From Eledone cirrhosa (Eukaryota), in NCBI GenBank assembly GCA_964016885.1, contig OZ024741.1, positions 59,458,001-59,522,000 of the forward strand: DNA of 64,000 nt, written 5' to 3'. The position numbers and the translations under genes were made by a program. Positions 1 through 60,194 of the stretch are shown here, piece by piece; position 1 is the first letter of the stretch; each line of letters begins with the position of its first letter. The notes beneath the pieces were generated by a model that searched no databases, was not told the origin of the DNA, and worked only from the letters and a program-made list of their open reading frames with translations.

Positions 1-1812
1 CCTCAGACAAAATACAATATAAACAGTTCTATAGATAAATAGATAAATAGATTCGACATACCGTACCAACATCTACTTGCATTTGAGAAGGTTGATTTGG
101 TTGTGACAAAATTGTACACAGAGAGAAAGAAAGAGAGAGAGAGAGAGAGAAAAAGAGAGAAAAAAGGAAAGAAAGACAGAAAACGAAGAAAAAGAAAAAG
201 AAGAAATGCATGGAACAAAATAGAGAGATGGAAAGATAGATAAAGAGAAGAACTTCATGTAAAGAAACAGAAAGAGAGATATATATATATAGAGAGAGGA
301 AATAGAGATAGATACATATATAGAAAGCTAGGTAGTGGAACGACTGTTGAATAACGTATCAATGATACATTTATTTGTTTATTTATTTATTTAGCTCTAG
401 TATTAATGTAAGGGAGATATATGGAGGGAAAACCAGCTGTTAAATAGGGAGAGAAAAAATATAGAGAGAGAAAAAAGAGAGAGAGAAAATTCAAAAACAT
501 CCAGAGACAAGCGAGGCGTACAAACCTCTGTTTTAATGTAGAGGTATTAGTAATTACAAAACCAGCCTCTGCATTGTAAATATCAGTATTCCTGAATGAG
601 ATATGTATCCACAATGTGTGAAAATTAATGATCTTATGTTTAGTTTTTAAAAAAATTCATATGTTTATGTGATAATTACAAACATCTATGTGAATGTACA
701 TGATCAATTCTGCAAACCCTAAGTTCACGGAAAGTATTCTCAATGCTGTGTAAAAATTTAAGTATACATATATGTGTATATAGAGTCAATATTACTATTT
801 CTGTCTCTACTCTACAAGATTATCTATCAAGCAAAGATAGAGCAGATTTCAATATACTAATAAAAATAAAAATAAAAAATAAAAATATATCGGAAACAAA
901 ACTAAACTAAAATAACAATAATAATAATAAGTAATAATAAAATAGAAAACTAAGAAATATTACGAAAGAGTATTACATATTAAAAATATTACATATTACA
1001 TATTAAAAAAAAAATTTACATATTAAAAATTTACATATTAAAAATATTAAAAATAAAACATTAGGAAATACTACAGTAATAAAAATAAAATAAAATAAAC
1101 CACAAAGATCAACCCTTCAAAATTAATTGACAATATATTGCCAAGTTCATTATAAACATCAGAGTCGAAAAACAGATAAAGCCAAAAATTATCTATCAAA
1201 TCGCATCTAGCAAAGATCATTTCAAAAAAGTATAGGATGCCCAATTTGGTCTACATGTGTTCTTATATTTAATATAGAAGTTTATCTAGTGTAACGTTTA
1301 TTCGAAATATTTGGAGCATCAACTTTTAGGATAGTTTAATTTTTCATGAAGAATGTTTAAATAAATAAAATAAAATAAAAATAAAAAGAGTAAAAAGAGA
1401 ATCAAAGATTTATCGGCTAGTTTCCCATATAATTATAAATCAAACTAAATATACTACATTTTAAATTTAAATTTATATTTAAACGTTGAGTTTAATCTAT
1501 GTTTGCAACAACTGAATAAATTTGTCCGTAGATTAAGGGAATTTTTAGATTTTAGTATAAAGAATATCTCCTCTGCGCAGAGGTCACATGTCTCAGAGGA
1601 TGAATTAAAAGGAATCCCTCTTGAGACTATATTCCAAGCCGTCGAATATCTAACGTTATCTAGCTTAAGTTGCCATAGTACGCCTGATAGTGCCGTTGAA
1701 GATTTTTTACTTGGATCTGTGAAAGAATTCTTGTGGTTATTATAGCGAAGTTTAAATTCCGTCGATGTGGAACCGACGTAGTTAAAAGAATTAGAGTCAG
1801 TATTAACATTAC
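1..1812 (-). mobile_element. Penelope-like element family A, copy 1 (5'-truncated: end of GIY-YIG ORF plus 3' UTR/pLTR, continues left of window)
   Basis: Colinear with copy 2 (9425-12391). 1454-1812 encodes the GIY-YIG end (YVGST...CDLC...CCKH). Bases 1-14 are the start of the minus-strand hammerhead (TATTTTGT CTGAGG). Confidence 0.9.
1454..1812 (-). pseudogene. C-terminal fragment of PLE-A GIY-YIG endonuclease
   Basis: Close match to 10826-11183, the 3' end of the 521-aa ORF. Confidence 0.85.
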
Positions 1813-1818
1813 TGTTAA

Positions 1819-2412
1819 TGGATGTTTTTGAATTTTCTCTCTCTCTTTTTTCTCTCTCTATATTTTTTCTCTCCCTATTTAACAGCTGGTTTTCCCTCCA
1901 TATATCTCCCTTACATTAATACTAGAGCTAAATAAATAAATAAACAAATAAATGTATCATTGATACGTTATTCAACAGTCGTTCCACTACCTAGCTTTCT
2001 ATATATGTATCTATCTCTATTTCCTCTCTCTCTATATATATATATCTCTTTCTGTTTCTTTACATGAAGTTCTTCTCTTTATCTATCTTTCCATCTCTCT
2101 ATTTTGTTCCATGCATTTCTTCTTTTTCTTTTTCTTCGTTTTCTGTCTTTCTTTCCTTTTTTCTCTCTTTTTCTCTCTCTCTCTCTCTTTCTTTCTCTCT
2201 GTGTACAATTTTGTCACAACCAAATCAACCTTCTCAAATGCAAGTAGATGTTGGTACGGTATGTCGAATCTATTTATCTATTTATCTATAGAACAGTTTA
2301 TATTGTATTTTGTCTGAGGAAGGCATAGCATATTGTTAATATGTTATCCCTGAAATATATATAATGAAATAAATATGGTTTTATAAATATAGTTTCCATT
2401 TATTTAATATTG
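1819..2412 (+). mobile_element. Inverted partial pLTR of PLE-A copy 1
   Basis: 1819-2319 is the near-exact reverse complement of 1-503. Ends at a (TA)n array. Confidence 0.9.
2306..2371 (+). ncRNA. Type I hammerhead ribozyme, family A
   Basis: TATTTTGT-CTGAGGA-[agg.atagcatatt gtt aatatgttat.cct]-GAAA-TATATA-TA-ATGAAATA. Stem I has two G-U pairs, one of which is G-C in copy 2. Confidence 0.8.
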
Positions 2413-3396
2413 TATATATATATATATATATATTTATATATATATTTATATATATATATATATATATATATATATATATTTATATATATATTTATATATA
2501 TATATATATATATATATATTTATATATATATATATATATATATATATATATATTTATATATATATATATATATATATATATATATATATATATATATATA
2601 TATATATATATATATATATATTTATATATATATATATATATATATATATATATTTATATATATATTTATATATATATATATATATTTATATATATATTTA
2701 TATATATATATATATTTATATATATATTTATATATATATATATATATTTATATATATATATATATTTATATATATATTTATATATATATTTATATATATA
2801 TTTATATTTATATATATATATTTATATTTATATATATATATATTTATATTTATATATATATATATATATATATATTTATATATATATATATATATATATA
2901 TATATATATATATATATATATATATAAATATATATATATATATATATATAAATATATATATAAATATATATATATATATTTATATATATATATATATATA
3001 TATATTTATATATATATTTATATATATATTTATATATATATATTTATATATATATTTATATATATATATATATTTATATATATATATATATATTTATATA
3101 TATATATATTTATATATATATATATATATATATATATATTTATATATATATATATTTATATATATATATATATATATATATATATATATATATATATATA
3201 TATATATTTATATATATATATATATATATTTATATATATATATATATATATTTATATATATATATATATATTTATATATATATTTATATATATATATATA
3301 TATTTATATATATATATATATATTTATATATATATATATATATATATATATATATATATATATATATATATATATATATATATATATATATATATG
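2412..3396. repeat. (TA)n microsatellite with TTTA interruptions
   Basis: Direct reading. Confidence 0.95.
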
Positions 3397-3592
3397 TAGA
3401 TAAATCTACCAAGAGTTTACGGTAGTGTCCAATCCGTATGAAGAACTCAATGTAATCCGGATATCATGGAAAGAAGAGATGCAATGAAAAATCACTTTCG
3501 GTGAAAGATAAACGGAATACAGAGTCAAGATAAAATATTAAAAAAATAATGAATAAAACAATGAAACAGTTCCTTATATTAAACAAAAAAAG

Positions 3593-57347: not shown

Positions 57348-57430
57348 ACTTTCCTGATGACGGAATGATTTTATATAAATTTCTTCGGAAAATATATTTA
57401 CTCCATTCCAGAAACTAATTAGTTGGAAGT
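57348..57430 (+). ncRNA. Type I hammerhead ribozyme, family G unit 3
   Basis: As unit 1 but with a perfect GGAATG/CATTCC stem II base. Confidence 0.82.
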
Positions 57431-57929
57431 AATTTTTTAGTAAGTAAGTTAATTTTATAATTTTCTTATTTTACGTCTCTCATATTATTGTTCTGCAACC
57501 CCATGCATTGAACCACATTGTTAATAAGACAAAACCTATATATTTGCTAGCATTGATATGCATCTGTGTGTATATAAATGTTACTAGATATAAATTCCTT
57601 ATATATATAAATATATATTTATATATATATATATATATATATATAAATATATATTTATATATAGATATATATATATATATATATATATATATATATATAT
57701 ATATATATATATATATATATATATAAATATATTAATATATATATATATATATATATATAAATATATTAATATATAAATATATATACATACATACATAAAT
57801 ATATATATATATATACATACATATATATATATACATACGTACATATATATAAATACATACATACATAGATATATGCCAACGAAATCACTAAGACAACAAT
57901 ATTACTAAACCGACTACCGTCGGTTTAGG

Positions 57930-59843
57930 ATATACATACATATACATATATATATATATATATATATATATATATATATATATACATATATATATATACA
58001 TATATATATATATATATATATATACATGCATATATATATATACATACATGTATATATATATACATACATACATATATATTTATACATACATATATATATA
58101 TATACATACACATATATATATATATATATATATATATACATACATACATACATATATACATATATACATATATATATACATACACATATACATATATATA
58201 TACACATATACATATATACATAAACATAAATACATATATATATATACATAAATATATATATATACATACACACACACATATATATATATACATATATATA
58301 TATATACATACATATATATATACATATATATATATATACATATACATACATATATATATATACACATATATATATATATACATACATACACATATATATA
58401 CATACACACACATATATATATATACATTCATACACATATATATATACATACATATATATATATATACATATACATACATATATATATACATATATATATA
58501 TATATATCGATATATACATGTATATGTATATATACATAAATATATATATACATATACATGCATATATATATATATATATAAATATATATATATATATATA
58601 TATATATATATATATATATATATATATATATATATATATATATATATATATATATATATATACACATACATATATATACATATATATACATACACACATA
58701 TATATATACATACATATATATATATATATATATATATATATATATATATATATTTATATATATATACATACATACATATATACATATATATACATACATA
58801 TATATAAATATATATATACAAATACATACATATATACATATACATACACATACATACATATATACATATACATACATACTTACATATATATATATACATA
58901 CATACATATATATATATATATATACATACATATATATATATATATATACATACATGCATACATATATATATACATACATACATATATATATATATACATA
59001 CATATATATATATATATATATACATACATATATATATATATACATACTTATTTATATACATACATATACATATATATATACATATGTATATACATGTATA
59101 TATATATATACATACATATACATATATATATGTGTGTACATATATGTATATATATGTATATGTATATACATATATATATATATGTATATACATGTGTACA
59201 TATATGTATATATATATATATATATATGTATATATATGTGTATATATATGTGTACATATATATATATATATATATATATATATATATATATATATGTATA
59301 TATATATATATATATATATATATATATAAATACATATATATATATATATATATATATATATATATATATATATATATATATATATATATATATTTACATA
59401 CATACATACATATATATATATACATACATACATATATATATATACATACATATATATAAATACATACATACATAGATATATATACATACATATACATACA
59501 TATATATATATAGATAGATAGATACATATATATATATATATACATGCATATATATATATATACATACATATATATATATATATACATACATACATATATA
59601 TTTATACATACATATATATATATATATACATACACACATATATATATATATATATATATGCATACATACATATATACATATATACATATATATATACATA
59701 CACATACATACATATATATACACATATACATATATACATATACATAAATACATATATATCTATATATATACATACACACACACACATATATATATATATA
59801 TATATATACATATATATATATATATATATATATATATATATAC
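57930..59843. repeat. 1.9 kb (TA)/(CA) compound microsatellite
   Basis: Direct reading. Confidence 0.95.
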
Positions 59844-60194
59844 ACGTGGGAAAGTAAAAATCGGAGAATAGACCGTTAAAACATGTTTATTTAAAATATC
59901 ACCTACGTACGTTTCGCCCAGTTGGGCTTCTCAAGGGCATAAATAATCACAAGTGTTCCATATATAGTTCGGAAAGAGTTTTGGGGGTTAAATCTACATC
60001 AAGATTCATTGCTCGCAAAAATATCTTGTTTTGATTTTGCAGCAGGTCAAGGGAGGTAACTCTGGCCGGTGTTAGGGCAGTCTTTCCCGGATAATTTTAT
60101 TTTTTATTTTTTTGCCGCAGCCGTTTGTCTGAGGCTGGGTCTGGGATGCAAGGATTGTTCAGAAAACAATCCTTGCATACCAGACCCAGCCTCA
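59844..60194 (-). mobile_element. Non-coding HHR-variant-bearing insert, family H, with a 30-bp terminal fold-back
   Basis: HHR variant at 59900-59940, hairpin at 60130-60194, TA flanks. Confidence 0.6.
59900..59940 (-). ncRNA. Small hammerhead variant (U3-A8 core, TTGAGAA), family H
   Basis: ATGCCC-TTGAGAA-[GCCCA ac TGGGC]-GAAA-CGTACG-TA-GGTG, followed by AATAAA. Palindromic ACGTACGT, weak stem I. Confidence 0.62.

Follow-up and report, generated by a model that had tools for sequence, protein, structure and literature searches.

A 64,000-nt stretch of the Eledone cirrhosa genome (assembly GCA_964016885.1, contig OZ024741.1, positions 59,458,001 to 59,522,000 of the forward strand; below, the window, numbered from its first nucleotide) is best read as a TA-rich region filled by insertions of five families of Hydra-type Penelope-like elements (PLEs) and of five non-coding hammerhead ribozyme repeats, the latter likely moved in trans by enzymes of this type, with every family carrying a type I hammerhead that is predicted to cleave as a dimer. 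We assign this reading a probability of about 0.85. Hammerheads at the ends of PLEs and of small non-coding repeats are a known, published design. The window has 29% GC and abundant TA microsatellites.

Hammerheads of the window

An exact motif search of the window found 21 complete cores with predicted cut sites, which fall into ten families (A to J). They include all 19 type I hammerheads listed by a first-pass annotation of the same sequence, at positions that differ by no more than a few bases (three each in A, C and F, two each in B and D, one each in E and H, four in G), and two that lie past its end coordinate, one of family I at +60435 (ACTGTACAGT) and one of family J at -63960 (ACGCGT). 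The window start truncates one further A copy, the remainder of which continues leftward outside the window. Self-comparison, which takes inverted pairs and short tandems into account, reduces the 21 copies to about 13 independent insertion events.

A structure descriptor for type I folds matched 16 places in the window, whereas 30 local shuffles gave 0.13 matches on average and never more than 1; its first version demanded a paired base of stem II, returned a single motif and was then relaxed. The relaxed descriptor misses both D hammerheads, E, H and the third F copy, in which stem I or stem II is weak. E and the third F copy were recovered by a looser scan, and D and H solely by the exact motif search. 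None of the window hammerheads reached the gathering score of an Rfam profile; family F matched Hammerhead_HH9 weakly (E 0.051 on 361 bases), and on the whole window the 150 of 385 rows listed held only microsatellite-driven microRNA-type matches.

The hammerheads of A, B, E, F, G, I and J have the canonical CUGANGA/GAAA core, a UH site, three stems and an open stem I; in C and D the core reads CCGAAGA (U4C). Family H, with a TTGAGAA core (the U3-A8 variant) and only two contiguous stem I pairs, is for these reasons the weakest hammerhead call of the window. Covariation, a check proposed at the outset, was counted for the F and C lineages, family G being aligned only. In the F lineage six stem pairs are changed on both sides, a count reached by 1 of 500 shuffles, which is not to be taken as a probability because the rows are related; in the C lineage covariation is weak (see below). 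The hammerhead motifs are real, and their self-cutting is predicted from the modelled folds.

Coding families

Open frames for reverse transcriptase (RT) and GIY-YIG endonuclease extend over 745 codons in family A, 832 in C, 808 in D and 927 in H. Those of C, D and H sit directly upstream of the hammerhead in longer genomic copies, where tandem unit lengths are 4.2 kb for C, 3.5 kb for D and 3.3-3.7 kb for H (5.6 kb for B). Judged by sequence, the C, D and H copies of the window are the 5'-truncated ends of autonomous PLEs found elsewhere in the genome. Family B is the 3' end of a second RT, met in frameshifted or truncated copies only. As read from sequence, the families divide evenly into coding (A, B, C, D, H) and non-coding (E, F, G, I, J), five of each. 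The first-pass annotation had placed its type I hammerheads on PLEs and non-coding passengers, with two RT/GIY-YIG helpers and at least six non-coding clients among eight apparently unrelated families. Both kinds of host are indeed present, but the split was wrong, since C, D and H are autonomous and five of those eight families are coding; nor is it borne out that they are unrelated, as relatives of C and D have in common a CCGANGA core, a TGCT/AGC stem I and the palindrome ACAATTGT.

A Pfam search of four open reading frames (ORFs) gave no domain match, and the RT and GIY-YIG domains were recognised from their motifs. In alignment, a CxCX5C linker precedes the endonuclease in A, B, C, D and H, and each of these families has an RWR or RWK motif. 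The DKG motif is changed to DKT in A to D, while copies of H show either DRT or DKT. The CCHH motif was not found in the five coding families, in which CxxC and CxH instead flank the conserved E and N. We provisionally assign the five families to the Hydra clade of PLEs because all of them show the clade-defining motifs of Craig et al. 2021 (PMC8557442): the likeness extends over the C-terminal GIY-YIG domain, the linker, RWK/RWR, DKT, CxxC with CxH in place of CCHH, the hammerhead near the 3' end, insertion into (TA)n, the inverted 5'-truncated copy and the tail at one end only. The supplement of that paper lists Hydra-1_Obim of Octopus bimaculoides with (TA)n and a hammerhead. The present families differ in unit length (3.3-5.6 kb against generally <3 kb, which in that paper is a tendency more than a fixed limit), in the tails of the coding families (about 90-170 nt against 30-40 bp), in stems II that in some cases reach 50-115 nt, and in copy numbers far above those of the few families reported. 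A Naiad PLE, defined by an N-terminal GIY-YIG domain with a CxC linker and no canonical hammerhead, was ruled out by the C-terminal endonuclease and the hammerheads.

The coding families appear to be young. For the family A RT, a first look over the genome gave 36,292 candidates, and the 150 scored are 95-100% identical, many of them in open frames of about 745 codons. When each hammerhead region was searched against the genome, dispersed copies at 94-100% identity were found among the best 35-40 candidates scored, numbers that are not copy numbers.

Non-coding families

Families E, F, G, I and J consist of tandem units with a single type I hammerhead in each. Their units measure 2804, 496, 525, 525 and 311 nt, respectively, and their longest ORFs starting with methionine encode 120, 85, 53, 73 and 39 amino acids; a tblastn search of these units against PLE proteins gave no match. 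Their copies lie scattered on many contigs and are 96-100% identical. In these respects they look retrozyme-like, and fit the non-LTR retrozymes of metazoans apart from the larger E. Like the elements described by Cervera and de la Pena 2020 (PMC7229834) and Li et al. 2026 (bioRxiv 10.64898/2026.07.22.740005), they are non-coding tandem units of 300-525 nt with low GC and a single type I hammerhead per unit; they also resemble axolotl Amex2 in the U-U mismatch with which stem II begins, and would fit the mobilisation by PLEs that has been proposed in print (PMC7229834). They differ in the 2.8-kb length of E, against a published range of 51-972 bp (bioRxiv 10.64898/2026.07.22.740005), in their (TA)n targeting and PLE-type inverted ends, and in that no pLTR homology to the five coding families was found.

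Movement of E, F, G, I and J in trans by PLE-type enzymes is likely. The best evidence is that G, I and J all obey the rule of one long and one short inverted end described below. Sequence comparison singles out none of the five coding families as their helper.

Of the sequencing runs listed for family J, none is on record as RNA. Family J also occurs in four sequencing runs of unknown kind, as single 340-nt contigs in three and with very deep cover in one; tandem array and circle, and DNA and RNA, are indistinguishable in these data. Among sampled genomic regions, one (L404) holds a long tandem array of an F-related unit of about 421 nt with 15 motifs, and another (L370) a long tandem array of the J unit with 11 motifs. 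In region L094 (G000:C4:38102500-38112499) a 2.55-kb tandem array combines the family G unit with a Neptune-like GIY-YIG fragment that runs the other way, and L277 (222-947) holds, duplicated in tandem, a Mariner-type transposase fragment into which a TA run and a copy of E are set.

3' ends and insertion

The 3' ends of A, B, C, D, G, H, I and J were resolved, and each of these families has two discrete ends that adjoin (TA)n. The short and long ends lie, respectively, 49 and 138 nt after the predicted cut in A, 70 and 207 in B, 42 and 208 in C, 58 and 229 in D, 57 and 175 in G, 60 and 220 in H, 121 and 212 in I, and 130 and 163 in J. Tail-out inverted insertions numbered 49, of which 9 could not be classified; all of the other 40 join one short and one long end, including insertions of the non-coding families G (7), I (4) and J (3). 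The TA target that the first-pass annotation had suggested to be shared by these elements is borne out, with fixed 3' ends abutting (TA)n and a TA run downstream of 87 of 107 hammerhead motifs sampled from the genome.

These ends suggest how insertion may proceed. A dimeric RT-GIY-YIG protein would cut both (TA)n strands, and reverse transcription would be primed within the RNA at two positions, 40-230 nt beyond the hammerhead, each of which serves one of the DNA ends. The template would be an uncleaved tandem or circularised RNA, because the inserts run past the hammerhead cut. The scheme resembles that of the Poseidon PLE of the green anole (PMC11167929), whose tail is delimited by a pair of internal RT start sites located 3' of the hammerhead; this element uses an AT-rich target and has both target strands cut and extended. 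It differs in clade and in that no strand difference in start site was found there in vitro, whereas each inverted insertion here has one of each end.

Two families carry TA repeats of their own. The 3' untranslated region (UTR) of family B contains about 1 kb of TA/CA microsatellite (window 21560-24392), at the same positions in the four copies examined, and the F units contain (TA)n in every copy examined. Since these tracts lie within their units, B and F would spread their own target type and seed new (TA)n sites.

Stem III and cleavage as a dimer

To survey stem III, 748 motif records from all DNA examined were grouped into 44 sequence clusters. Perfect palindromes occur in 26 of the 33 clusters with even-length stems, compared with 4.0 expected. 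This enrichment fits published dimer cleavage, as modelled for hammerheads with a palindromic stem III (PMC4209133; PMC6765202; figure legend of PMC3088659). The double-hammerhead fold was computed to lie 5.5-19.5 kcal/mol below two monomers, a difference that is partly a generic effect of loop removal. We propose that stem III stays self-complementary so that two tandem hammerheads may swap strands and cut. In the geometry of the modelled double hammerhead, stem I would be exchanged together with stem III, and partner choice would thus never rest on the palindrome alone. Cleavage at H17 is likewise a prediction.

In type I topology, short palindromic stem III and fit to the dimer model, these hammerheads are like those of metazoan PLEs (Cervera and de la Pena 2014, PMC4209133; Lunse et al. 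2017 as cited in PMC6765202). Further points of likeness with PMC4209133 are a stem II that starts from a surplus or mismatched base, the U3-A8 variant, many sequence families per genome and mostly single truncated copies. U4C cores fixed in whole lineages are a difference, as is abundance, estimated below at about 300,000-430,000 compared with about 2,000-9,000 reported there.

Abundance in the genome

For genome-wide abundance we sampled 80 evenly spaced 10-kb regions (799.8 kb of a 3.0-Gb genome; 60 regions from the four largest contigs). The descriptor used for the window found 107 motifs in this sample and 0-1 in five shuffles. Extrapolation gives 427,000 motifs when stratified (bootstrap 246,000-667,000), 401,000 unstratified, and 300,000 (204,000-407,000) without the two tandem-array regions, so that the genome is estimated to hold about 300,000-430,000 type I hammerheads. 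This estimate suggests a large ribozyme load wholly missed by Rfam. By comparison, 126,247 hammerhead motifs are reported for the axolotl (PMC7229834) and 235 Rfam hammerheads for the giant squid. A literature search that covered few subscription papers found no octopus genome with a hammerhead count; for O. vulgaris, an annotation from 2026 reports 31 recently active Penelope-like families, and the word ribozyme is absent from its main text as far as available (PMC13282606).

Seen against this background, the window is not special. Its motif density is about twice the genome average, inside sampling noise: at least 16 motifs in a 64-kb draw are expected with P 0.15, and 7 clusters with P 0.18. 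The 'hammerhead ribozyme cluster' of the first-pass annotation is therefore not a feature peculiar to this locus. The (TA)n content of the window is three times the sample mean, and across the sample motif clusters follow TA content (Spearman 0.59). A TA run lies no more than 330 nt downstream of the 87 motifs mentioned above, compared with 33% of random places, and the 26 TA-poor regions hold 2 motifs against 105 in the other 54.

Taken together, the data incline us, by a small margin over even odds, towards a broader picture. In this picture the type I hammerheads of the genome number several hundred thousand, above the count reported for the far larger axolotl genome, and belong to dozens of families active side by side; every inverted insertion, with one short and one long RT start, would reflect a PLE dimer priming the two target ends asymmetrically on one RNA; and B and F, carrying their own (TA)n, would seed new targets. 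Intact young families of a TA-specific RT-endonuclease, with non-coding clients and mapped 3' ends, would make a ready system for studying PLE integration and the trans-mobilisation of retrozymes.

A simple scan for hammerheads in scrambled order (type SGC) gave 10 matches in the 800-kb sample and 1-2 in shuffles. Seven of them, with stems I and III paired, are related to each other (sampled regions L345, L350 with two copies, L369, L376 with two copies, and L392). The same simple scan found none in the 64-kb window.

Alternative explanations

Several observations weigh against the reading with which we opened, and they concern the movement of the non-coding families and the role of cleavage. 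As to movement, the DNA of the non-coding units shares with the five coding families just 16-29-nt AT-rich matches, and Neptune-like endonuclease fragments are present in the genome. An unlikely alternative is that the non-coding families are satellites growing by unequal crossover, or are moved by a Neptune-type PLE or a LINE and not by Hydra-type enzymes; besides the missing homology to the five Hydra families, it would draw on the long tandem arrays formed by F and J and on the Neptune-like and LINE ORFs of the genome. It has to face the spread of these families over many contigs at near-identity, with fixed end sites adjoining (TA)n, and the inverted long and short ends that G, I and J have as the Hydra families do, a pattern which points to a PLE, not to which clade.

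As to cleavage, the folds of three coding families are weakened (a U4C core in C and D, the non-palindromic stem III ACAAATGT in D, a weak stem I in H), yet these families have many near-identical copies, and the U4C core is said to lower activity in vitro considerably (PMC3088659). Covariation in the C lineage is limited to two pairs, equalled by 28 of 500 shuffles, with stem I 78% paired. Insertion of the anole PLE in vitro did not require hammerhead cleavage (PMC11167929), and 8 of 9 dimers of Xenopus retrozymes were without cleavage (bioRxiv 10.64898/2026.07.22.740005). Tandem copies on the same strand are found in the window only for F and G, and inverted partners cannot dimerise in one transcript. 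It is conceivable, at odds we consider low, that the motifs persist today as largely inactive passengers or as structures that bind protein, with mobility achieved via the RT start sites only and cleavage playing no part. The weakened cores or stems of the young, high-copy families C, D and H would then be no obstacle, nor would the dispensability of cleavage for the anole element or the spread of Naiads without canonical hammerheads (PMC8557442). What this alternative leaves unexplained is that core, stems and self-complementarity are kept over the 44 clusters, with paired changes; such a conserved fold with paired changes points to continuing selection on the fold.

The first-pass annotation had also offered the distinct stem III palindromes as a family-specific dimerisation code. 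The seven palindromes it named read as it wrote them, and nine of the ten window families carry nine different palindromes, whose cross-duplexes were computed to be weaker than the self-duplexes. Across the survey, though, ACAATTGT occurs in 7 clusters, ATATATAT in 6, and ACTAGT and ACGATCGT in 2 each (sharing that is partly by descent), three palindromes are found within one cluster, and 35 of the 107 sampled motifs are not perfect palindromes. All-distinct stems arise in random draws with P 0.50 for 7 clusters, 0.40 for 8 and 0.24 for 10, so that the distinctness first noted is expected by chance in 40-50% of cases. Older C relatives and D relatives have both the palindrome ACAATTGT and a 4-bp stem I that pairs across the two groups just as well as with itself (rows for stem I of D and H were left out of this comparison), and five families of Hydra magnipapillata have the common stem III ACTT-T-AAGT (File S2 of PMC8557442). 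A selected code that prevents cross-dimerisation of co-resident elements is on these grounds very improbable, and as a unique code it is largely refuted, since palindromes change within lineages and, once diverged, would mismatch anyway with no selection needed. More plausibly, palindromes drift through paired changes within lineages, and partner choice would be set by transcript proximity, stem I and stem III.

Arrangement of the window

The window opens with family A insertion 1, a tail-out inverted pair of this Hydra-type PLE (1-2411; self-match of 1-462 with 1860-2319) that starts left of the window, where its long end and the remainder of its left hammerhead are found. It holds a GIY-YIG C-terminal fragment (1454-1915, minus strand) and a plus-strand hammerhead (2306-2371, stem III ATATATAT, predicted cut after 2363), and is followed by a (TA)n array, the insertion target (2413-3395). 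A 5'-truncated family B copy with the long 3' end occupies 3396-8533 on the minus strand; its 2.8-kb 3' UTR has its own TA/CA microsatellites, its hammerhead (3595-3744, minus strand, predicted cut 3603, ACGATCGT) has a stem II insert of 115 nt, and a fragment with RT thumb, linker and GIY-YIG lies at 7489-8460 (minus strand). Next comes a minus-strand family E fragment (8563-8920), the 3' end of the 2.8-kb non-coding unit, flanked by TA runs, with a predicted cut at 8761 in its hammerhead (8753-8818, minus strand, ATGATCAT).

Family A insertion 2 (9338-12762) joins a long copy on the minus strand, with the long end at 9338, to an inverted short copy with the short end at 12762. Its hammerheads lie at 9468-9533 (minus strand, predicted cut 9476) and 12651-12716 (plus strand, predicted cut 12708), and between them a 5'-truncated RT and GIY-YIG ORF of 523 amino acids shows Hydra-type motifs (10826-12397, minus strand). 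A family C 3' UTR fragment (13012-13729, plus strand; hammerhead 13632-13686, ACAGCTGT, CCGAAGA core) is followed by a (TA)n array (13721-16395), which is interrupted by TTAA and contains an unrelated insert near 15240-15600, and by a family C inverted insertion (16387-17709) with the short end at 16387, the long end at 17709 and hammerheads at 16421-16475 (minus strand) and 17455-17509 (plus strand). Three tandem family F units of about 496 nt, non-coding and with internal (TA)n in each, lie on the minus strand at 18266-19727, their ACTAGT hammerheads at 18430-18476, 18926-18972 and 19447-19493 (all minus strand). The second family B copy (19727-24594, plus strand), 5'-truncated and with the short 3' end, contains an ORF at 19924-21306 and a plus-strand hammerhead at 24384-24532 (predicted cut 24524). 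A family D inverted insertion (24846-26766), the 3' UTR of the autonomous 3.5-kb PLE, has hammerheads at 24897-25012 (minus strand) and 26429-26544 (plus strand), and a (TA)n array (26767-29264) then leads to an assembly gap (29284-29483). Very short element ends also lie within TA arrays, C-type at 15027-15061 and B-type at 29265, beside this gap.

Towards the right end, family G forms three tandem 525-nt non-coding units on the plus strand together with an inverted truncated copy (55772-57599); its hammerheads (ACTAATTAGT) are at 55821-55907 (minus strand) and at 56296-56382, 56821-56907 and 57346-57432 (plus strand). Beyond a TA/CA microsatellite array (57600-59842) lie a minus-strand family H 3' UTR fragment (59845-60193; hammerhead 59896-59942, U3-A8 core, weak stem I, ACGTACGT), a plus-strand fragment of the 525-nt family I non-coding unit (60306-60625; hammerhead 60427-60512) and, on the minus strand, the end of a tandem non-coding array of the 311-nt family J unit (63801-64000; hammerhead 63922-63968).

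The window also holds a repeat of about 460-600 bp (4868-5116, 34821-35222, 52092-52692, 54524-55589) that adjoins TA runs and contains hairpins and a CCRAYGA stretch; it has 11 copies in the 800-kb sample, and no hammerhead fold could be fitted to it. A dispersed repeat of about 190 bp, SINE-like in size, has five or more copies (in the window at 41386-41786, 45045-45253, 47833-47925 and 60673-60843). Broken LINE-type ORFs with endonuclease and RT fragments, unrelated to the hammerhead elements, lie at 39622-44254, 45720-48542 and 61184-63435, the last with C-terminal zinc fingers.

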